NCBI GenBank assembly: GCA_965226495.1
Contig: OZ245365.1
Span: 1,152,001-1,216,000, forward strand
Reading direction: 5' to 3'
Origin: Candidatus Marinacidobacterales bacterium
GTDB taxonomy: Bacteria > Acidobacteriota > Vicinamibacteria > Marinacidobacterales > DATDRI01
DNA: 64,000 nt
Shown here: positions 2,416 to 58,197 of the stretch, piece after piece
Layout of the letters: every line of letters begins with the position of its first letter
Position numbering within the stretch: position 1 is the stretch's first letter
Made by a program: the position numbers and the translations under genes
The notes under the pieces: generated by a model
The model's input: only the letters and a program-made list of their open reading frames with translations
Database searches by the model: none
Told to the model about the DNA's origin: nothing

Positions 2416-2826
2416 ATGAGTGATACAAGGGAAATTCAGGCTGAGTGGTTGGCAGACTCTCGCTTTCGGATCGAATCCAGCCTAGGTGTCGAGGCGGTTT
2501 TCGATGGTGACCGAGAGGCCGGCCTTTCCCCCATGGAAAACTTGCTCGGCTCTCTCGCGACTTGCATGGGGATCGACGTCGCGATGATTCTTGAAAAGAT
2601 GCGGGCAGATCTGCGGGGTCTGAAGATAAGCATACGCGGCGAGCGCAATCCGCAGCCGCCGAAATTTTATCGAAAGATAGACTTTGAGTTCACGGTAACC
2701 GGTAACATTCCACAAGAGAAGGTCGAACGAGCGATCAGCCTGTCATTCGACAAGTATTGCAGTGTCTTTCACACGCTTCGCAAGGATCTCGTGGTCGACC
2801 ACAGGGTGGTCATCCAAGGAGGATGA
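2416..2826 (+). CDS. OsmC/Ohr family protein
   Basis: SPMENLLGSLATCMGID...AISLSFDKYCSV two-Cys OsmC signature. Confidence 0.9.
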   Translation: MSDTREIQAEWLADSRFRIESSLGVEAVFDGDREAGLSPMENLLGSLATCMGIDVAMILEKMRADLRGLKISIRGERNPQPPKFYRKIDFEFTVTGNIPQEKVERAISLSFDKYCSVFHTLRKDLVVDHRVVIQGG

Positions 2827-2848
2827 CCGCCGTCACCGGCAGTTGGAA

Positions 2849-3274
2849 TCACGATAAAGATTTTTTCAATGCGTCGAGAAGGGCCATGTAGATCGGGTGG
2901 AGGAACTCCTCGGCGGCAGCATCGTTGCCGGTCCAGCTAGACGACCACTCGACGAAGGTCGCGTTGTCCGCGGTAGCGGGGGAGACTCGAATCACGCTAA
3001 TATACCCTTTGATCTCGTCCTGAGAGATGGGCGACGGCCCCTGGTCGATGCTGTAGCGGATCTTCCTGTCGATCTGGTTGACCTCGAGAAGGGTCTCGTG
3101 GAATGCATCGTTCAAGATGCGCTTGGCACCGGCCTGATTGCCTTGAGACTCTCCTACTTTCTCGCACTTGTCGATCACCCCGGCTGCCCAAGACATGTCA
3201 TGAAAGTCGGTCAGCTTCTCCCAAGCCTTCTCGACCGGTGCTTTGATGACGATGGATTGATAGGTCTTGCCCAT
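2849..3274 (-). CDS. SRPBCC (polyketide cyclase-like) family protein
   Basis: SIVIKAPVEKAW...DFH...GAKR...ETL...TFVEWSS pattern; RBS GGAG. Confidence 0.85.
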   Translation of the reverse strand: MGKTYQSIVIKAPVEKAWEKLTDFHDMSWAAGVIDKCEKVGESQGNQAGAKRILNDAFHETLLEVNQIDRKIRYSIDQGPSPISQDEIKGYISVIRVSPATADNATFVEWSSSWTGNDAAAEEFLHPIYMALLDALKKSLS

Positions 3275-3387
3275 ACCTAATATCTCCTTGTCTGGTCGTA
3301 TAGTTTTCTTTCTGTTCCGCTAGGCGATCTTAGCATCGCTGGATTTCGTTGGTGGATGCACCGTGGATTCGCTGTGCCTAACTCGAG

Positions 3388-4473
3388 CTAATCAGGCGGC
3401 GGCACATTTTCAACGTCGTGCTCCTGGACCCGGAAGACCCACGTTAGGGGGATCGAGTCTGGTCGATAGCAGATATTGTCGTCACAGGCTTGGTACTGAA
3501 ACGATCCTTCGAGGGTCAGAGTCTTGTCGTATAGGTGCTCGATGGCCTGATGAGGGCCGATGACCACGTCCCGCATGATGCGGAACCTGTCTTCGTAGAC
3601 CGGCACCGTCTCGTCGATGGCGGGGAGATGGAGCGTACGCGACTCCGGGTACTCCGGGTCAAAAGCCCACCATATCTCCGACTCCGGTATCTGCCACTCG
3701 ATGGGGATGTAGCCCTCGACGCCCGGCGCGTAGAGATGCATCTTAGGAGGGAGCTCGACGTCTAGTATGAGAGTCAAGCGATTTCCGGGTCGCACCACGT
3801 CGTCGCTTGCAGACGCCGTCAATTTCAACTGGTTGTTCGTTGCCTCGGTGGCGGTGTTCCCCGCGGGGTCTTCGAAATGACGCACCAGCACGTTGGACGC
3901 CGTATATCGCTCACGGTGGTCTATTTCGAAGAACTTAGCCTCGACGATCCCGTTTTCATCGATGATGAACATCCCGGGGAAGGGGAGGCCATAACTCTCG
4001 TGATCGGGAGCGTAGTTGGTATTCAATATCCCGAAGGCTCTGATGACTTCTGAGTCGGGATCGGACAGGAGGGGGTATGTGATTCCCTTGCGGTCGCCGA
4101 AGTGACGCAGGATCGCCACGCTATCGTACGTGAGCGCCGCGATGTTCAGGCCACGCTCGGCGAAGTCTTGCTTCTTCTCTTCCAGCTCCACGAGCTGGGT
4201 TTTGCAGTACGGTCACCAGTCGGCGGAGCGCACCACCAGGAAGACGAGGCCGGCGGGTCCCTTTAGGTTATCGAAGTTTCGAGTCTTGCGGCTCCGATCC
4301 ACAGCCTGGAAGTCGGGGATCTTGTCTCCAACCTCCGGACCCGTCGTGACCTCGCGGTCGTTCTTCGATAAAGGTATGAGCTCTGCCCGTCCCTGTCCCC
4401 AAGACAGAGGTGCGGTCGTCATTAACAACAGGGTCGCACCCGCCAGCCATCGGTCGAATCGCATCTCCAACAT
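3388..4473 (-). CDS. Exported AhpC/TSA-like redoxin selenoprotein (UxxC) fused to a DsbD N-terminal-like domain
   Basis: ORFs 4213-4473 and 3388-4191 join in frame through TGA 4213-4215: RSADW-U-PYCKTQLVEL; GPEVGDKIPDF, YPLLSD, PGMFIIDENG redoxin motifs; C-terminal MHLYAPG...YQACDDNICYRP; SECIS-like hairpin. Confidence 0.88.
4182..4198 (-). promoter_or_regulatory. Putative bacterial SECIS hairpin
   Basis: CCAGCTC-GTG-GAGCTGG perfect 7-bp stem; loop G lies 22 nt after the UGA. Confidence 0.75.
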
Positions 4474-4810
4474 CCCTTCGTCCTATATCGGATTTCGCTC
4501 CTTCCAACGCCAGACATTGTAAGAGTATAGCGCGGGGAGAGCGAACGGCTGAATCCAGGTGGACTGTCGATGAGTCGAAATCGACGTGGTATGGCAGGTA
4601 TACTAACTGGTCCCTCCCAATCTCCTCACAGGAGCACGGTGTCCCAAACTCGGCAACCTTGGCTATCTGGCCCCGTTCCTATTGTGGGGCTCGGGCGTAG
4701 CATACCTGGGCGTTTTCGCGCTCCTAGTGCTGACGGGGCCTTGGGTCCCTGGCACACTACCCGGGGGGACGATGATGTCGCTGGTCGTGCTCGTTTACGG
4801 CCGCTCCCGG

Positions 4811-6079
4811 CTAAGACTGAGATTCTCGCTCCGGGACGATCCACCTCCACTGCAACGCACCGAGAACCGCGACCAACGCACCTAGCGCCAGAGCCCACTG
4901 CCAGCCGAACACTGTGCCCACCCACGGCGTCACGACCGGTGCAGCCATCCCGCCCACATTCCCACCGGTGTTGAGTATTTCCTGCCGCAGTGGTTCCTTT
5001 CCGACCGCCGAGCTCGATAGCCGTGGTCCAAAAAGCCGCCTCCGCGGCGGTGACCGAGCCCAAGGCGAGACTGAACCAAAGGACGACCCAAATCGGGTCT
5101 TTTGCCAGGACGCCAACACCGAGCATGATCGCACCGGTGATCATTCCGGTGATGGGAACCGCGACCCGGCCTCGTCGGTGTCCCATGATCCGCTCGAGCC
5201 GATCGGTGATGAAACCACCCGACAACATTCCTGCTGCCATGGCGAGCCCGACGATGGTCGAGTAGAGCCGGCTCGTGTCGGATCCCAGGCCCAGTACGGA
5301 GCCGAAGTAATAGAGCATCCAGTAAAAGAACAGGTACTCGAAATAATTCACGGCGGCGTAAGAGAGCGTGAGCAGAGCGAGTCCTGGCTTTCGGATCAGC
5401 CGACTCCAGTCGGAACTCGTTTGGCCCCGTTCTGTCTTTTGCGTGGTTGCCGGTGATACGCGCCGCGCGGTAGGGGAATCTCCTGCCAGCGCAACCCAGA
5501 GTATTCCGAGACAAGCAGTCACTCCACCCGTAATCAAGAAGGCGGCGGGCCAATCCACCCAATCGATCAAAGCTCCGAAAACGTAGTACGTGCTCGCGAT
5601 GCCCAACGCCGCCGCGCTGACTGCCAAGCCATTCGCCGTGCCCCGTTGGCTCGTTGGGATCCAATTCGCAACCGTTCTGGCGCTCGACGGGTGAAGCGGC
5701 GCGTTCAAGCCACCCATGATGGAGCGAACGACTAGAAGCGAGATCCACATCTGACTGCCGGCCACGAGTCCCAATCCGAGCAATCCGGTCAGAGCTCCGA
5801 AAACGGCGGTGCCCAACGCCATCAGGCCGAGTGCCAACCAAACGCCGAATCTATCGGCGAAGATACCCGCTGGCGTCATGCACAGCGTGTAGGTGAATAG
5901 GAATGCGGAATAAACATACCCATTTGGGTAGGGGAGATGGCGAACTGATCCATGATCCGCTCGTCGCCGGCCACGGACATGCTCACTCGGTTGAGATGGC
6001 TGATGAAGGTGATCCCCATGAGCAGCGGGACGACGCGCCATCGGGTCCAGTCGTATTTCGTCGCGGCCATGGGCGGCAA
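4811..6079 (-). CDS. MFS transporter (anion:cation symporter-like), two frameshifts
   Basis: ISHLNRVSMSVA...GIFADRFG...NWIPTSQRGTANG...ILNTGGNVGG; frame changes at homopolymers near 5920 and 4980. Confidence 0.85.
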
Positions 6080-10605: not shown

Positions 10606-11004
10606 ATGAAGATCGCTGTCGTTTACCGTCCCTATCACGCGCGACTTCGAGAACTGCCGCAGTCAGGCGTTAAGTTAGGGGTCGACCTACACACAATGGC
10701 TTCTCATGGGCCACCGGTGGGGCCCGATCCTGGAGTCGAACGACCTTGGGTATGTTTGAGCAACGGGGAGGGAACTACCTGTCCCCAAGAATGGATCGAA
10801 TCTTTGAAAGCTTGTTTCGAAGAAAGTTTCGGCACGAACGTCCGTCTTAACGATCCTTTCAAGGGAGGCTTCATCGCCCGCTCCCATTCAACCGAGTTAC
10901 CGTGGTTGCAAGTAGAGCTTTCCCGCGCCGCTTTCATGACGAACATCGAGAAACGCCAGGGTGTTCTCGCAGCGCTTCGACAGTGGTGCGAGCAGAGTTT
11001 CTGA
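10606..11004 (+). pseudogene. N-formylglutamate amidohydrolase, C-terminal fragment
   Basis: YRPYHARL...DLHTM...NDPFKGGFI...LQVELSR; the N-terminal half is missing. Confidence 0.65.
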
Positions 11005-48864: not shown

Positions 48865-48919
48865 GGATTTTTCTCCCTTTCGTGATAGGTTCGCATCGAT
48901 AGCGTTTCGGAGTCTGACA

Positions 48920-49815
48920 ATGAGCCTACATCAAATCGGCATTCTAGCGCCCGGTCCAAGCCTGGGCCGGTTTCTCTTCTTCCAGCTCGCGCCCGGCGAC
49001 GACCCGCGCGCCGCGGTGAAAGCAATCCAGGGACTGGACGTGGACGAGGATATCGTTGTTGGGTTCGGAAGCTCACTCGTGCTCGCGACGGGTGGCCGTA
49101 TTGATGGCCTTCGGGCTTTCCCTAGCCTTACCGGTCCCGGGATCGAAGTTCCGTCCACGCAGGCTGCCGCTTGGTGTTGGCTCAGAGGCGAAGGCGACCG
49201 CGGTCAATTGGTTCACCGATCGCTCGTGCTCGAACAACTGCTGGAACCACTCATGTTGTCCAGCATCGTCGACAGTTTCAAGCACGACCCGACGCCGTCC
49301 GGACGGGAAGAGACCTATCCGGGTACGAAGACGGTACAGAGAATCCGACCGGCGACAAGGCAATCGCGGCCGCCATCGCGTCGGGAGGAGGCCCAGGGCT
49401 CGATGGCTCGAGCTTCGTCGCCGTGCAGACGTGGCAACACGATCTCGTCGGATTCCAGGCGATGACTCAGGACGAGCGGGACAACATCATTGGACGGCGC
49501 TTACGTGACAACGAGGAGATCGAGGACGCACCGGACTCCGCGCACGTCAAGAGAACCGCGCAAGAGAGTTTCGAGCCAGAGGCGTTTGTTGTCCGTCAAT
49601 CGATGCCATGGGCCGATCCCGACGGGGAAGGCCTCGTCTTCGTTTCATTCGGGCGGACACTCGATGCATTCGAGGCACAACTCAAGCGAATGGTTGGCCT
49701 CGAAGACGGCATCGTCGACGGTCTCTTCCGCTTCTCCCGCCCGGTATCAGGAGGGTACTACTGGTGCCCGCCGGTGGGTGATGGAAAGCTCGACTTGCGC
49801 GCACTAACGAGCTAG
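48920..49815 (+). CDS. DyP-type peroxidase (frameshift near 49303)
   Basis: GRDLSGYEDGTENP, IIGR, SAHVKR, GLFRFSRPVSGGYYWCP. Confidence 0.9.
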
Positions 49816-50464: not shown

Positions 50465-50540
50465 CGCTGGTCGGTGGGCGCGGCAGCGCTGACCGCTTGA
50501 CTTGTCCCGCCTAAAGCGAGAGACTAGCACCGAACGATAC

Positions 50541-50614
50541 GCCTAGGGGTGGCCGCTCGGCCTGAGAGCAAACCCTCGGAACCTGATCCGGTTGATACCG
50601 GCGTAGGGAACGGC
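50541..50614 (+). ncRNA. TPP (THI-box) riboswitch
   Basis: GGGGTG...CTGAGA...ACCC...GAACCTGATCCGGTTGATACCGGCGTAGGGAA consensus. Confidence 0.92.
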
Positions 50615-50692
50615 AGCTGGCTCTTCTGGCATCATAGAAGAGCGGCAATCTCGAACGAGTCGGTCATCTCTAGCGTCAATCTACAAGGGAGA

Positions 50693-53059: not shown

Positions 53060-53623
53060 GTGTTTTCCCTCGAGCTGGTCGCCGTCGTCCTCACACTGGT
53101 GGCCGTCTACCTGACGGCGCGCCAGATCATCTGGTGCTGGCCGCTCGCCATGGTCAGCGTCGTCCTGTACGCAGCGGTCTTCTACGACGTCCGACTGTAC
53201 GCCGATATGGGGCTACAGGGTCTGTACTTTGGGCTGGCCGCCTACGGCTGGTGGGCGTGGCTGCGCGGCGGTGAGGATCATGGCGAGCTCGAGGTTTCCC
53301 TGACCTCGAGCCGGACGCGGGTGGTGCTGGTGGTGGTCGCGACACTCGGCGGGATTTTGCTGGGTCAGATCCTGATGCGCTTCACCAACGCGTCGCTGCC
53401 ATTCATGGATTCGATGCTCACCTCGTTTAGCATCGCGGCCCAGTGGATGCAGACCCGAAAGCTACTAGAATCCTGGCTGGTGTGGCTTGCCGTTGATGTT
53501 TTTTACGTCGGCATGTTCTTGTACAAGGGGCTCTACCCGACGGCGGGACTGTACGCCGCCTTTCTTGTCCTCGCTGTAATGGGTTTCACCGAGTGGCGAC
53601 GCTCGATGCGAGGCGCGCGATGA
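53060..53623 (+). CDS. pnuC: PnuC-family transporter (PnuT-like)
   Basis: LYADMGLQ, YGWWAW, DS...AQW...RKLLESWLVWLAVD. Confidence 0.9.
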   Translation: MFSLELVAVVLTLVAVYLTARQIIWCWPLAMVSVVLYAAVFYDVRLYADMGLQGLYFGLAAYGWWAWLRGGEDHGELEVSLTSSRTRVVLVVVATLGGILLGQILMRFTNASLPFMDSMLTSFSIAAQWMQTRKLLESWLVWLAVDVFYVGMFLYKGLYPTAGLYAAFLVLAVMGFTEWRRSMRGAR

Positions 53624-54144
53624 TCCGCGTCGTGGTGACCGGCTCCGAATGCACCGGCAAGACGAAGCTCGCCGAGGCGATTGCCACACACTACGAGACC
53701 GTCTGGGTCCCGGAGTTCGCTCGCCAGTTCGTGATCGACAAAGGCGCCGCTCCCGTGTACGAAGATGTCGAGACCATCGCCCGCGGCCAAATCGCCCTAG
53801 AGGACCACAAAGCCGGCGAGGCATCCAGCCTACTTCTTCAAGATACCGATCTACTCAGCACCATCGTCTATAGCCGCCACTACTTCGGTGATTGCCCCCA
53901 CTGGATCGAGGAGGCTTTCGAGAAACGAGCCGCCGGCCTATACCTTCTAGCCGGCATTGACGTTCCCTGGGTACCCGAAGGGGAGCAACGCGACCGCGGA
54001 GACCGGCGCGAAGAGATGCACGAGCTATTCCGGAGCGCCCTGGTCGATCGCCGCCTGACCTATGCCGAGATAGGTGGGGCAAGGGGTGAGCGATTGGAAG
54101 CGGCGGTGTCGCGGATCGACCAGCTTCTTAGTCGAGGCCGCTGA
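53620..54144 (+). CDS. NadR-type P-loop kinase domain protein
   Basis: GSECTGKT, VPEFAR, DTD, DVPWV...RD. Confidence 0.88.
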   Translation: MIRVVVTGSECTGKTKLAEAIATHYETVWVPEFARQFVIDKGAAPVYEDVETIARGQIALEDHKAGEASSLLLQDTDLLSTIVYSRHYFGDCPHWIEEAFEKRAAGLYLLAGIDVPWVPEGEQRDRGDRREEMHELFRSALVDRRLTYAEIGGARGERLEAAVSRIDQLLSRGR

Positions 54145-54279: not shown

Positions 54280-54789
54280 CTAACGCACGTCGTCAACTGT
54301 TAGGCGAGGGGCTTTGTCTCCCTCCGGGGCGTGGAAAACTCCTGACACGCTCACCTCAGTGTCGTTGTCCAGCTTCTCAAGCTCGTCCGAGGCCTTATCA
54401 CCCTCCAGGAGGATTAGCATATCCAGACTGGACTCATACCCGACTCGGAGCGCTAGGGCATTCTCCACCCTCTCCAATGTGCCCTTAACGTCAACCTTCA
54501 CTTTGCCCGCTGAGAAGCCAGCGGCCTCGACGGCCTTGGCAATCTGTGCCGGATCGAAAGAGTGGTCCGGTTCGGCAAGGATCACGGTCTCGCCCGTGTC
54601 GAGACTCATCACTTCAGCGTCCTGAACGCCATCCAGGCGTTCCAGAGCCGTCTCGGCCCCGTGTGCTCACAACCCTCACGTCATGCCCTGAATCCAGGTT
54701 CGGGCTTCTTGGACTTGGGCAAAGGCTACTCCCGACAATGCGTGGCAGAGAATAATTGTACTTAGTGATAGGAGCGTTCTCACTTTCAT
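54280..54789 (-). CDS. Secreted HMA-domain (MerP/CopZ-like) selenoprotein with GMT-U-G-L-U motif and C-terminal beta domain, 169 aa
   Basis: ATG 54789 with AGAGGA RBS; MKVRTLLSLSTIILCHALSGVAFAQVQEARTWIQGMT-TGA-GL-TGA-AHGAETALERLDGVQDAEV...IAKAVEAAGF; TGAs at 54676-54678 and 54667-54669; in frame with ORF 54280-54612. Confidence 0.85.
54624..54660 (-). promoter_or_regulatory. Two tandem SECIS-like hairpins
   Basis: GGGGCC-GAGAC-GGCTCT (54644-54660) and GAACGCC-TGGAT-GGCGTTC (54624-54642). Confidence 0.65.
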
Positions 54790-54810
54790 GTCGTTAGGTC
54801 CTCTCTTTTG

Positions 54811-55662
54811 CTAGTGAAGGTATCGAAACCCTGTTACGAACACCCAGTCTTTATTCAACCGATGACCGTTCAACTCCTGGTACACGGGGAGTTGGACAGA
54901 CAACTCCAATATCAAGTTGCGCCGCAAGAAGACTTCAACTCCCGGCGAGACAAAAACGGACTCGCCACCCGTTGCAAGGATCTCCGTCCCGTCACGGTTC
55001 GACCGGCTCTCAATGAAGGAGTTGACTTCCAACACGACGAATAGGTCGTTTCGCTCCGGGTACCGGAGGAGGCGATACATGACGGATGCGTCCAGCTGCA
55101 GAAGGTTCCCCGCCTTGAACCCGCTCTCTTTCGTCGTTGCTGTCCACTGGAAATCGGTGTTGACGAACCAACTAGTCGTTGCGTGGGTAAAAATAAGCCC
55201 CTGAAGAAGGTCCGTCGCTCCGGTCGAGAAACCCTCTTGGCCCCAAGGTACCTTCACTCCCAAGAAACCCGCCAGCCGAGAAAAACCACCAGGCCGGTTT
55301 TTCGCATAGAGCCCGTCGTACTGCACGAAAAACATTGGGTCCGCCAAGCTCGTGTCTCTTGGTTGGCCGCCCGGTGAGCCGCTGACTACGGGTACCATAG
55401 CGACCCACATGAGGTGGCGTGGTAGACCGAAGACGAACGTGTTTTCCCAGGCCATCACCGTGTGGTCTCGGTCACGCTCGGGGCGACCGTCCGTGACATC
55501 TAGCGACGGAGGAGATCGTTTCAGGACTCGCCAATCAGACCGATAGAGAAAGTTGCGGACGAACAAAGTTCTAGCCCCGGGGGAGTTGATTTGCCCAGAT
55601 AGGGGCAAGTGCTGAAGCAACAAAACGGACGCCAGGACAAATCGGAGACAGATTAGTCGCAC
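54811..55662 (-). CDS. Putative outer-membrane beta-barrel transporter (MetA-pathway/COG4313-like)
   Basis: Signal peptide, amphipathic strands, GVKVPWG, GGESVFVSPG, VQLPVYQELNG, GFRY near the C-terminus. Confidence 0.7.
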   Translation of the reverse strand: MRLICLRFVLASVLLLQHLPLSGQINSPGARTLFVRNFLYRSDWRVLKRSPPSLDVTDGRPERDRDHTVMAWENTFVFGLPRHLMWVAMVPVVSGSPGGQPRDTSLADPMFFVQYDGLYAKNRPGGFSRLAGFLGVKVPWGQEGFSTGATDLLQGLIFTHATTSWFVNTDFQWTATTKESGFKAGNLLQLDASVMYRLLRYPERNDLFVVLEVNSFIESRSNRDGTEILATGGESVFVSPGVEVFLRRNLILELSVQLPVYQELNGHRLNKDWVFVTGFRYLH

Positions 55663-55835
55663 GGCGTAAGTCTAGTTACCCGGCCAGAGGTTACCCAAAC
55701 AACACCTACCCTCAGGGTTTCGCAACTCGCAAGCCGAGCGCCCAGCTTCCACGTGTGCATGGATGCGCGATTCGGCAGCGTCGGCGTCACACCGAAGCCG
55801 GCGGCGACGGCTCCGAAACCGCTCCATTTGGACAT
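55653..55835 (-). pseudogene. Possible MerT-like N-terminal remnant
   Basis: Strong RBS (GAGGAG) right after the merR stop; MSKWSGFGAVAAGFG resembles MerT TM1 but diverges before the CC motif. Confidence 0.35.
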
Positions 55836-55844
55836 GACATCTCC

Positions 55845-56463
55845 TCAGGCTTTCTCGTCGGATACGTCGGCAATCACCGGGCATCTCGAACCCTGGTCAA
55901 TCGCCTGAGCGCATTGGTCCCGGTAGTTAGACATTTGTCGATGGAAGCGCTTCATTTCTTTACCCTGCTGGGCGATCTCGACTATTTTCTTGTCGAGGAT
56001 GCCCAACACGCGACGGCAGCTCCCGGGGTTGTCCGGCCGGAGGCCCAGGAGTACCGAGATCTCGTCGAGAGCGAAACCAAAACCCTGCGCGCGTTTGATG
56101 AAACTCAGACGCTGCTCAGCTTTGGGCCCATAAAGGCGGAGAGCCTGATCTGGAACGCCGCTTCATTTCTTTACCCTGCTGGGCGATCTCGACTATTTTC
56201 TTGTCGAGGATGCCCAACACGCGAAGCTCCCGGGGTTGTCCGGCCGGAGGCCCAGGAGTACCGAGATCTCGTCCGAAACCAAAACCCTGCGCGCGTTTGA
56301 TGAAACTCAGACGCTGCTCAGCTTTGGGCCCATAAAGGCGGTAGCCTGATCTGGAACGCCGGCTGGGTTTGAGAATGCCGCGCCGCTCGTAGTACCGGAG
56401 GGTTTCGCGGTTCACACCGGCCCGCAGAGCTAATTCACCGATGAGAAGCGAGTCGTTCTTCAT
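55845..56463 (-). CDS. MerR-family heavy-metal-responsive regulator, disrupted by an approximately 211-bp imperfect duplication
   Basis: IGELALRAGVNRETLRYYERRGIL...SGYRLY...FIKRAQGFGFALDEI...SCRRV...DQCAQAIDQGSRCPVI*; three Cys ligands. Confidence 0.88.
55948..56361. repeat. Imperfect tandem duplication inside merR
   Basis: 55948-56160 repeated at 56159-56361 with small deletions. Confidence 0.85.
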
Positions 56464-56481
56464 TCGATTGCTCTTGGCGCC

Positions 56482-56513
56482 ATTGTAAACCTTTGACTCG
56501 GGTACAGGGTCAA
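56482..56513 (-). promoter_or_regulatory. MerR-type promoter with extended spacer and dyad operator
   Basis: TTGACC-CTGTACCCGAGTCAAAGGTT (20 bp)-TACAAT. Confidence 0.85.
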
Positions 56514-56685: not shown

Positions 56686-58197
56686 CTAGGCGCCGCTGGG
56701 TACCTGCAATTCCGGCATCGGTGCAGTGTGAAACAAGCGCCGGCAGGGCTTCGCTATCCACCTGGCCACCGTCGTCGCCCGGTTCACACGGGCACTGTCC
56801 GTCGCAATCCCTGTGCTGGCGTACATTTGCCGGTAGAGCTTGGAAAGCAAGACGAAGGCGAGACGTGCGCGCAACGTTGGAGTACATCGAGAGCGCTTCC
56901 AGACTGGGCCCAAGCTATAGAAACGATCCCAGACCGACTGCGTGCGCGACCTGATCTCCTCGGCCGACAGCACTGGATGGTCGCTGTAGATTTTCGGCCG
57001 AAGATTTTGAGGAATCAACCAGTGGCGGGTCAATGGGATACCCCCAATGCGCGTCGGGTCATCCTTCATCGAAGCTTCCCAATTGTTGAAATCTACCGTC
57101 CCCGGGAACGGGGTCATCATCACGAACTGCGCAAAAGTCAGATCGGCCTCCTGCGCGAGGGCCGCGGTAGCGTCGAAGGTCTCCGCGCGGTCCGTGGGCA
57201 GACCAAAGATGAACGAGCCCAAGACGTGCACTCCGTGCTTACGAAACTTGCGAAGCTGCAGCACTAAGTCTGCGCCCGAGGTGTTGAAATTCTTGTAGAC
57301 CGCTTTCAGCCCTTCGGCAGTAACAGACTCGACTCCGACGAGAGCTCCTTTGATGTTGGCTTTGCGCATGGCATCCAGAAAATCGGGATCGTCGGCGACT
57401 TCCATCGTGATCTGAGTAAAGAACACCATATTGGCGGGCAACTTGGCCATTTGCGCCATCAACTGGAACCGATCTTCGCGTATTGATTTGAGCTCTTGGA
57501 GCCGGTGCACATCGTTGCGACTTTCGGCAAGCCTCAAGTCCTCTAACGTAACCGGGTAGAAATTGTCGTCCGCCAGGGCGATAAATCGAAATCCGAGCCG
57601 TCGGAGCTCGACAATTTCTTCGATGACGGCGTCGGACGGGCGCTGGCGGGGTTTTTGGCCGTCCGTGCGCCAGACGGAGCAAAAAGAGCAATGCTTGGGG
57701 CATCCGCGCACCGTTTGAACGGAGGCCCACATATAGCTGTTGGGAGGAATCAGTTCCCAACGGGCGGGCTTGAACTGGTCGGCCTCGATCTTTCCCGCGT
57801 CGTACAATCTTTCGGGCTTTCCTTTCGCGCAGTCGGCCAGGACGGTGGCCCAAACGACGTCCCCGTCGCCCTTGACGACGCCGTTTGCGCCGCCCAAATC
57901 GAATGCTTCCTCGGGGTAAAGCGTGGCGTGAATGCCTCCATAGATCACATGGGCCCCTCGCTCCTGCGCCATGCGGCCGACCTCGTACCCGCGCAGCGCG
58001 TTGCCGGTATGGATGCTGATGCCGACCACATCGCCGTGCTGAATGTCGGAGGGGTCGATTTGCTCTAGCGTTTCGTCGACAATCACCGGGTCTCCGTACT
58101 CTCGGGGGGTCGCGCCGGCAAGTACGAAGAGCCATCGGGGGGTTATAACGCCTATTCCAAAGGAGATATGGCTGGGGTTGACTAGATGCACTCTCAT
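56686..58197 (-). CDS. B12-binding-domain radical SAM protein
   Basis: GGIHATLYP, RGCPKHCSFC, DDNF, GVES, GSFIFG, TPFPGT. Confidence 0.92.
   Translation of the reverse strand: MRVHLVNPSHISFGIGVITPRWLFVLAGATPREYGDPVIVDETLEQIDPSDIQHGDVVGISIHTGNALRGYEVGRMAQERGAHVIYGGIHATLYPEEAFDLGGANGVVKGDGDVVWATVLADCAKGKPERLYDAGKIEADQFKPARWELIPPNSYMWASVQTVRGCPKHCSFCSVWRTDGQKPRQRPSDAVIEEIVELRRLGFRFIALADDNFYPVTLEDLRLAESRNDVHRLQELKSIREDRFQLMAQMAKLPANMVFFTQITMEVADDPDFLDAMRKANIKGALVGVESVTAEGLKAVYKNFNTSGADLVLQLRKFRKHGVHVLGSFIFGLPTDRAETFDATAALAQEADLTFAQFVMMTPFPGTVDFNNWEASMKDDPTRIGGIPLTRHWLIPQNLRPKIYSDHPVLSAEEIRSRTQSVWDRFYSLGPVWKRSRCTPTLRARLAFVLLSKLYRQMYASTGIATDSARVNRATTVARWIAKPCRRLFHTAPMPELQVPSGA

Follow-up and report, generated by a model that had tools for sequence, protein, structure and literature searches.

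A predicted UxxU heavy-metal-associated protein encoded next to an outer membrane beta-barrel in an Acidobacteriota genome

Results and Discussion

Organization of the gene cluster

A stretch of 64,000 nt from the genome of Candidatus Marinacidobacterales bacterium (Acidobacteriota; GenBank assembly GCA_965226495.1, contig OZ245365.1, positions 1,152,001 to 1,216,000), referred to here as the window, contains a small gene cluster that may handle soft metals in the cell envelope. On the minus strand, from position 56513 to 54280, the cluster comprises a promoter-like site, a gene of the MerR family, a short unassigned stretch, a gene for an outer membrane beta-barrel and a frame of 169 codons that bears two in-frame TGA codons. 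The last frame encodes a protein with a heavy-metal-associated (HMA) domain and a predicted OB-fold domain (HMA-OB protein). The genes are separated by 9–21 nt or overlap and may be co-transcribed. The coordinates given in the initial annotation, made from the sequence alone, are exact. Between the barrel gene and the HMA-OB frame the gap is 21 nt and contains a purine-rich ribosome-binding site.

A profile search of genome contigs with the barrel alignment matched 17 stretches, two of which were confirmed (loci L001 and L002, one Acidobacteria metagenome-assembled genome). Among the 57 other open reading frames (ORFs) of the window, no P-type ATPase, MerT or MerA was detected (family hits at E≤1e-5), and in tblastn of the window the ATPase and the MerT of a relative reached E values no better than 0.89 and 2.3. 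The earlier statement that neither merA nor a P-type ATPase is present therefore holds for the 64-kb window.

The HMA-OB protein is very probably a selenoprotein

The HMA-OB frame (54280..54789, minus strand, 169 aa) has TGA at codons 38 (54678-54676) and 41 (54669-54667), 9 nt apart, and both coincide with the metal-ligand positions of the HMA domain. With TGA read as U, the product starts with a signal peptide ending in AFA-Q and continues ARTWIQGMT-U-G-L-U-AHGAETALERLDGV. The Pfam HMA model (PF00403) spans both TGAs when C is substituted for U (residues 32–92; 44.2 bits, threshold 24.8).

A word-indexed protein search found seven close homologues, and 7/7 were N-terminally cut ORFs covering 64–77% of the query, the result to be expected from gene callers that stop at TGA. 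One of them begins M-C-A-H-G, which places Cys at the second ligand position. A profile-free search of representatives returned 1793 matches at E≤0.001, mostly HMA domains of ATPases, together with many proteins of about 170 aa that align end to end with the HMA-OB protein. Of the 30 members that were aligned, 18 are of full length and carry C-x-x-C, mostly as C-P-F-C. The other 12 comprise three with TGA or W at both positions (the window, L001 and protein P0044), one with Cys at the second position and eight truncated ORFs. P0044 (~30% identical) has W at both ligand positions, as a translation of TGA as Trp would produce. The L001 orthologue reads GMS-U-S-L-U in a frame that is open on both sides, and 85 of its 166 aligned residues are identical to the window protein.

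A selenoprotein gene is marked by in-frame UGA codons at places where homologues have Cys and by retention of these codons in orthologues, and this pattern was found here. TGA is an ordinary stop in 28 of the 59 window ORFs, where it is the commonest one, and therefore local recoding rather than a variant genetic code is indicated. A second TGA-bearing gene was detected at 3388-4473 (minus strand), coding for a peroxiredoxin-like AhpC-TSA + DsbD_N fusion with a signal peptide and a TGA at 4213-4215 (W-U-P-Y-C). When the TGA is read through, this gene (4473-3388) matches AhpC-TSA over positions 1–123 of 124 (E 9.8e-29), compared with E 2.1e-15 for the truncated ORF, and it is a probable second selenoprotein gene. 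A crude scan of the window for further TGA-containing genes gave 62 frames, mostly spurious, of which only the peroxiredoxin-like gene was credible. Because the TGAs are kept in an orthologue of about 50% identity, align with C-x-x-C and are accompanied by a second TGA gene in the window, selenocysteine (Sec) is the best reading of both codons. The HMA-OB protein is thus very probably a genuine two-Sec selenoprotein, as the initial annotation had proposed.

Two adjacent hairpins follow the TGAs at 54624..54661 (minus strand; 54661-54643 and 54642-54624) and are predicted both in the window and in L001 as a candidate Sec insertion sequence (SECIS). Hairpin 1, with a stem of 8 bp in the window sequence and of 6 bp in that of L001, begins 14 nt past the first UGA, and the peroxiredoxin-like gene has a hairpin (CCAGCUC-GUG-GAGCUGG) that also begins 14 nt past its UGA. 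Hairpin 2 (GAACGCC, a 5-nt loop, GGCGUUC) begins 33 nt past the first UGA. It corresponds to codons 49–55, where synonymous sites are identical between the window and L001 in 6/6 cases, against 36/80 over the whole gene. As SECIS elements, the two hairpins are suggestive only.

Domain structure of the HMA-OB protein

An AlphaFold model of the HMA-OB protein (alignment A3) had a mean predicted local distance difference test (pLDDT) value of 86.8 and a predicted template modeling (TM) score of 0.79. In this model, residues 25–92 form an HMA fold (strand 25–32, helix 39–50, strands 55–60 and 67–72, helix 82–89), with TM scores of 0.78–0.86 to the domains of CopZ, ATP7B and HMA7 and of 0.75–0.80 to MerP. 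The predicted order of elements is that of the HMA fold (beta-alpha-beta-beta-alpha-beta), in which the metal loop joins strand 1 to helix 1. Residues 97–168 are predicted to adopt the OB topology, as a barrel of five strands in which a helix follows the third strand and precedes the fourth. This C-terminal domain had weaker matches (E 2e-3 to 9e-3) to OB domains from Asp/Asn-tRNA synthetases, RPA and Stn1-Ten1. No Pfam model covered it, with one marginal OB match in the 30 members, and all 47 matches of the family profile to the PDB were confined to the HMA part. The initial annotation had missed this predicted C-terminal OB-fold domain.

A feature search with a natural Cys homologue led to clusters named "heavy-metal-associated domain-containing protein" (161–169 aa), most often from Acidobacteriota, while in a plasmid collection the same query matched mostly HMA domains of ATPases and was uninformative. 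At 54430-54445 (minus strand) the window protein has GYES where the nearest homologues have P, a 3-residue insertion that keeps the frame.

The outer membrane barrel

The gene upstream of the HMA-OB frame (54811..55662, minus strand) starts with GTG and encodes a protein of 283 aa with a signal peptide, which scores 26.9 bits against PF13557 (cut-off 22). It has 12 homologues with 52–84% identity, and the mature N-terminus (QINSPGARTLF..YRS.WR) is invariant in 11 aligned sequences. The predicted model is all-beta with moderate confidence (pLDDT 67.6), and its best fold matches are FapF (5o68, E 2.7e-5, TM 0.51–0.54) and the COG4313 channel 4rl8 (E 1.3e-4, TM 0.47). By sequence, neither single nor profile searches of the PDB gave a match. 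These results agree with the earlier assignment as an outer membrane barrel. The signal peptide of the HMA-OB protein and the 21-nt gap are likewise consistent with the view that an exported protein is encoded beside the barrel.

Relative to its nearest relatives, the window barrel lacks 6–7 loop residues (about 55340-55370, minus strand), and the frame is kept. Two distant barrels (27–28% identity) were found on Candidatus Manganitrophus plasmids in the plasmid collection, with no adjacent metal genes.

The window barrel resembles the COG4313/PF13557 channels (Pput2725, 4rl8) and FapF (5o68) in Pfam membership and in its best structural matches. The known members differ from the present proposal in being linked to uptake of hydrophobic molecules or to amyloid export and not to metals. 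According to PMC5557850, the protein exported by FapF is a product of the same operon as FapF. Together with the tight pairing of the two genes and the fact that the best matches of the barrel model are FapF chains, this raises the question of whether the barrel is a secretion pore that sends the HMA-OB selenoprotein to the cell surface or the medium, where it would bind metal outside the cell. We regard such a role as improbable: the TM scores are modest and come from a model with a pLDDT of only 67.6, the small-molecule channel 4rl8 scores similarly, and the substrates of FapF are unfolded amyloid subunits, whereas the HMA-OB protein is a compact two-domain protein.

The merR gene and its promoter

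The promoter-like site (56482..56513, minus strand) consists of TTGACC (56513-56508), a 20-nt spacer and TACAAT (56487-56482), and precedes the start codon of merR (ATG at 56463) by 18 nt. One match to the pattern TTGAC-N20/21-TANAAT was found in the window, against 0.03 expected, and 3 of 100 shuffles had a match; the site claimed in the initial annotation is thus confirmed as unique in the window. It agrees with the promoter of the L001 merR-like gene at 21 of 32 positions, and among the 108 TTGAC-anchored 32-mers of the window it is the sole one to reach this value. A standard promoter scan permits spacers of 16–18 nt only and is blind to this site; it gave one unrelated match in the window, within the HMA gene. 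The imperfect dyad also noted earlier (TTGACcC-N7-GaGTCAA) is present, comprising TTGAC/GTCAA and one further pair, but it is weak (6/8 Watson-Crick) and is not preserved in the homologous L001 promoter. When read on the plus strand, this dyad is also scored as a terminator-like hairpin.

The merR gene itself is split. The upstream piece (56116..56463, minus strand, 115 aa) contains the helix-turn-helix (PF13411, E 1.2e-14; PF00376, E 1.5e-13), a frame-garbled copy of the dimerization helix and a premature stop. The downstream piece (55845..56141, minus strand, 98 aa), which has no start codon of its own, contains an intact dimerization helix and three-Cys metal-binding loop (GSCRRV ... C-x9-C; PF09278, E 8.2e-14). 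In NCBIfam the best matches of the upstream piece were ZntR and MerR, all under their cut-offs, and neither piece reached an equivalog cut-off. Both parts of a MerR-family sensor, the helix-turn-helix and the C-terminal helix and loop with ligand Cys, are therefore present (PF13411, PF09278), in a reading frame interrupted by indels of 1, 5 and 4 nt.

The interruption lies in a tandem duplication (55948..56361) with two copies of about 202–211 bp, for which Tandem Repeats Finder reported a period of 202, 2.0 copies, 94% matches and 4% indels. The copies share four exact blocks of 19–68 nt each and differ at only three sites: copy 2 has a 1-nt insertion and one substitution, and copy 1 has two deletions, of 5 nt and of 4 nt. 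The helix-turn-helix is retained in the first ORF, which goes off frame between the two deletions, regains the frame and stops at 56116, past the insertion in copy 2. Copy 2 would measure 210 nt if that insertion were absent, and the duplication may thus have arisen in frame, as one of 70 codons. Three indels with almost no substitutions are an odd pattern, and the break may be either biological decay or an assembly error. The reconstructed MerR of the initial annotation is thus partly upheld: SCRRV and C-x9-C are found in the downstream piece, but an intact gene exists only as a reconstruction. Since merR is broken, metal induction in this genome is doubtful, and the claim that the cluster is metal-inducible was not borne out here.

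The closest solved chain to the downstream piece is 4ua1 (E 1e-10), in which all three Cys align with Cys. We take 4ua1 to be the Hg(II)-bound MerR of Bacillus, although the name given by the depositor is only "Regulatory protein". The motif C-P-V-I after the last Cys resembles C-P-I-I or C-P-L-I in 4ua1 and 5crl, and not the ZntR or CadR chains. Assignment to the Cys-bearing divalent-metal type of MerR, proposed earlier, is supported by this alignment, which together with the C-P-hydrophobic-I motif favours Hg(II) as the putative cognate metal. The window gene thus resembles the Hg(II)-sensing MerR proteins (4ua1/4ua2, 5crl) in the three aligned Cys, in this motif and in a long-spacer promoter, and differs from them in being interrupted and in a Cys spacing of x9 rather than x8. 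A position of merR as first gene of the operon is the arrangement of Gram-positive mer operons.

Between merR and the barrel gene lie two overlapping short ORFs (55653..55884, minus strand; 55835-55653, 60 aa, and 55884-55672, 70 aa), to which no assignment could be given. They had no Pfam match at E≤0.1, no homologues among proteins of 38–123 aa and no match in the PDB. The initial annotation called this stretch a MerT-like stub, a label that was rejected: there was no Pfam or NCBIfam MerT match (PF02411), the best tblastn E values with the L001 MerT were 1.6–1.9 (300-nt stub), i.e. noise, and the CC motif of the first MerT helix is absent at the aligned place in both frames. The sole remaining argument is synteny, as L001 has a merR-like gene with a similar promoter followed by merT and a merP-like gene, and on this basis the stretch may be debris of a former merT. 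The 70-aa frame matched the last 34 positions of NF047645 (CopZ_Nterm_CC; E 1.4e-7, 31.8 bits, cut-off 100). This single partial match, below the cut-off, makes the CopZ N-terminal Cys-rich domain a candidate, and the label was not adopted.

The state of merR leads to the suspicion that the whole cluster is a decaying remnant, with a dead merR, a stub that is debris and TGAs that act as stops, so that nothing functional would be made. Apart from the duplication with its three frame-breaking indels and the stub without homologues, such decay would agree with the in-frame indels of the barrel and HMA genes relative to their relatives and with damage to other genes of the window (a frameshift near 49290 in a Dyp-type peroxidase gene and a truncated N-formylglutamate amidohydrolase gene). 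We give this explanation very little credence, as both TGAs at the ligand positions are retained although protein identity has fallen to about 50%, in a frame that stays open before and after them, and the barrel and HMA-OB frames are intact, their indels being multiples of three.

Conservation of the barrel/HMA-OB pair

In L001 the gene order is P-type ATPase (of which the C-terminal part was read, with its own Cys-type HMA), barrel, HMA-OB protein (UxxU), NHL-repeat protein, merR-like gene, MerT and MerP-like HMA protein. In L002 the order is RicR/CsoR-like repressor, HMA protein, DsbD-type membrane protein, full ATPase and a fused remnant of barrel and HMA-OB protein, followed by a divergent HMA-OB paralogue, with CusA/CusB-like genes on the opposite strand. 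Equal sizes of the source sequences for the homologue pairs P0004/P0011 (701,136) and P0006/P0012 (7,074,484) suggest that barrel and HMA-OB genes reside together there as well.

The barrel/HMA-OB pairing is thus found again both in a relative of about 50% identity and in a paralogous locus. The gene upstream of the pair is usually that of an ATPase, and MerR stands outside the core that is conserved. Conservation of the gene set as originally described therefore holds in part: the pair recurs (in L001 and as the L002 remnant), but MerR does not belong to the core and its place upstream is taken by the ATPase.

Several details of the two loci were also recorded. The L002 remnant (4930-5180) joins the first ~42 residues of the barrel (to ...MYRS) to the last ~27 residues of the HMA-OB protein (GVEVTVTGFLHPSHGDKSPGLTVEKFE), and from its sequence it is taken as a deletion remnant of the pair. 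The divergent paralogue (5463-5990, plus strand; hhalign probability 96%, E 2.6e-9) has one in-frame TGA at the second ligand position and no first ligand (NPAIGFL-U). C-P-C is the usual transmembrane motif of heavy-metal P-type ATPases; the L002 ATPase (2574-4931, plus strand) has G-Y-P-C at this place, and HMA domains at both the N- and the C-terminus. In L001 the merR-like gene (3375-3743, plus strand) has its helix-turn-helix and C-terminal half in different frames with the middle missing, and it is followed by MerT (3617-4081) and the MerP-like HMA protein (4094-4423). A Sec codon at the first ligand Cys of this merR-like gene was considered and rejected, as the TGA sits in the frame overlap of the broken gene.

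The initial annotation envisaged capture or sequestration of Hg/Cd/Zn-type ions. Of this, an exported and very probably Sec-containing HMA protein stood, while the order ATPase-barrel-HMA in L001 points to completion of efflux instead. Were sequestration the function, a metal-induced channel would admit such ions, or would merely be co-expressed, and the Sec protein would hold them with no onward export. The absence of an ATPase, MerT and MerA from the window and a MerR of the Cys-bearing divalent type would suit this explanation, as would general chemistry, in that a bis-selenolate Hg site may be so tight that release is hard. We nevertheless consider it unlikely, given that the pair follows a P1B ATPase in L001 and L002, that stoichiometric capture by a costly selenoprotein would be inefficient, and that the barrel would be left without a role.

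Proposed function

On balance it appears probable that the two genes behind the mercury-type MerR promoter constitute an envelope module that handles a soft, thiophilic metal. The first gene would encode a 12-strand-type outer membrane barrel of the FapF/COG4313 kind, and the second a protein exported by the Sec pathway to the periplasm, composed of a ferredoxin-like HMA domain and an OB domain, in which both ligands of the G-M-x-C-x-x-C site would be Sec. The two UGAs would be decoded with the aid of the hairpins 14 and 33 nt past the first UGA. A bis-selenolate site would bind Hg(II), or possibly Cu(I), Ag(I) or Cd(II), with higher affinity than do the bis-thiolate sites of MerP and CopZ. 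The HMA-OB protein would clear metal from the periplasm and most likely hand it to the barrel, perhaps by physical contact of the two proteins, for release across the outer membrane, so that this step would form the outer leg of a route begun by an inner membrane P1B ATPase. Clearance and efflux are favoured over simple capture because in the relatives the gene ahead of the pair encodes a P1B ATPase. In the present genome merR takes the place of the ATPase upstream, and with its disruption regulation may have been lost or the region mis-assembled.

Several observations weigh against this interpretation. The adjacency of barrel and HMA-OB genes is documented in two genomes only, and the window HMA and barrel bear in-frame indels relative to their nearest relatives. 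With merR broken and the stub unexplained, this copy of the locus may be decaying. For Sec insertion, selA, selB, selD and tRNA-Sec were not found in the 64-kb window (0 tRNAs; no Pfam match in 57 ORFs), and no SECIS family of Rfam was detected (whole window at gathering thresholds; 54280-54800 at E≤10). Folding of the hairpin region is only mildly better than that of shuffled sequences (z −1.59 in the window, 15/200 as good; z −2.73 in L001, 3/200). The hairpins were compared in two sequences only, with no two-sided covariation, the single pair change being one-sided (G-U to G-C), and they lie in a conserved protein segment encoding a conserved helix. The barrel has no conserved Cys and few invariant Met or His, so direct passage of metal is not evident. 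Finally, the cues to the metal conflict: an Hg-type MerR in the window against a RicR/CsoR-like repressor and CusA/CusB-like genes in L002.

Beyond the two-gene module favoured above, a more far-reaching proposal is made tentatively and should be viewed as rather doubtful. The locus would represent an unrecognized soft-metal export route of Acidobacteriota, in which a P1B ATPase passes metal to a bis-selenolate HMA-OB chaperone that outcompetes periplasmic thiols, and from there to a plugged 12-strand channel, with Sec acting as ligand and not as redox center. Such a route would correspond in function to CusF/CusCBA while consisting of unrelated components.

Relation to known systems

The best NCBIfam match of the window HMA-OB protein is NF041115 (UxxU_metal_bind; E 1.1e-11, 44.7 bits), and the score is under the cut-off of 95 bits, as are those of the L001 orthologue (31.3 bits) and P0044 (35.3 bits). 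The U-x-x-U pattern of this family is found at the HMA ligand positions both in the window (GMT-U-G-L-U) and in L001 (GMS-U-S-L-U). Like the window protein, NF041115 has an HMA-type fold in which both C-x-x-C ligands are Sec; it is a single domain of 74 positions, whereas the window protein adds a signal peptide, an OB-fold domain of about 75 aa and a barrel partner. The reviews PMC13188914 and PMC9312934 include this kind of protein as a row "putative mercuric reductase" or "metal-binding protein" (UxxU, 2 Sec), and there the UxxU and related metal-binding selenoproteins are given as predictions whose roles are untested.

With MerP (1afi, 1osd; TM 0.75–0.80) the window protein shares the character of an exported two-ligand HMA protein near a MerR-type regulator. 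It differs in its Sec ligands, its extra OB domain and the lack of a merT or merA partner in the window, where no such linkage was found, and its score against the MerP model (TIGR02052) is 33.7 bits against a cut-off of 92.55. A row "Mercuric transport protein MerP" stands among the Global Ocean Sampling (GOS) selenoproteins in PMC2398784. The MerT/CopZ-fusion selenoproteins (NF045683) are known relatives in kind.

CusF, together with CusCBA, is a periplasmic Cu(I)/Ag(I) chaperone feeding an outer membrane exit. The logic proposed here is shared with that system, i.e. a periplasmic soft-metal binder and an outer membrane exit downstream of a P1B ATPase, and a small beta-barrel (OB-like) domain occurs in both CusF and the HMA-OB protein. 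There is no sequence relation, however, and the module has neither a resistance-nodulation-division (RND) pump nor a membrane-fusion protein. Moreover, the metal site of the window protein is in the HMA and not in the OB domain, and its barrel is small and of monomer type, not a TolC-like trimer.

Selenium in an HMA site is thus already catalogued (NF041115 and the GOS MerP entry); new here are the added OB domain and the barrel partner. Literature on an HMA-OB selenoprotein or a metal-linked PF13557 barrel was not found in a search that did not extend to subscription journals, and the pairing and the architecture appear to be undescribed.

To our knowledge, redox catalysis is the role of Sec in almost all characterized selenoproteins. 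A trafficking protein in which Sec serves purely as a metal ligand is a catalogue prediction, for which this locus offers a compact and testable case: the protein is small and soluble, natural Cys-form homologues exist, the partner gene is defined and there is a candidate metal sensor. Should the pairing be functional, it would provide the first link to metal handling for the large PF13557/COG4313 barrel family and an account of soft-metal passage across the outer membrane of Acidobacteriota. That Sec can act as a heavy-metal ligand has been argued for other systems in a preprint (10.1101/2022.07.06.499078).

Other features of the window

Directly upstream of the cluster and on the same strand lies a gene for a B12-binding radical SAM protein (56686-58197), with no evident link to metal genes. 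A Dyp-type peroxidase gene (about 48900-49815, plus strand) is spread over two frames that switch near 49290, just ahead of the GRDLSGYEDGTENP motif, and the split is read as a frameshift or a sequencing indel. The ORF of an N-formylglutamate amidohydrolase (10606-11004, plus strand) covers only profile positions 107–219 of 219, the N-terminal half being missing.

At 50535-50627 (plus strand), a thiamine pyrophosphate (TPP) riboswitch with a score of 66.8 bits, which exceeds the gathering score, precedes the gene of a TonB-dependent receptor, whose ORF extends to 53041. As the riboswitch overlaps the GTG start listed for the receptor, the true start is further downstream. Next come genes for a PnuC-type transporter (53060-53623) and an AAA_28 NadR-like kinase (53593-54144), and the whole is probably a thiamine-related uptake operon.

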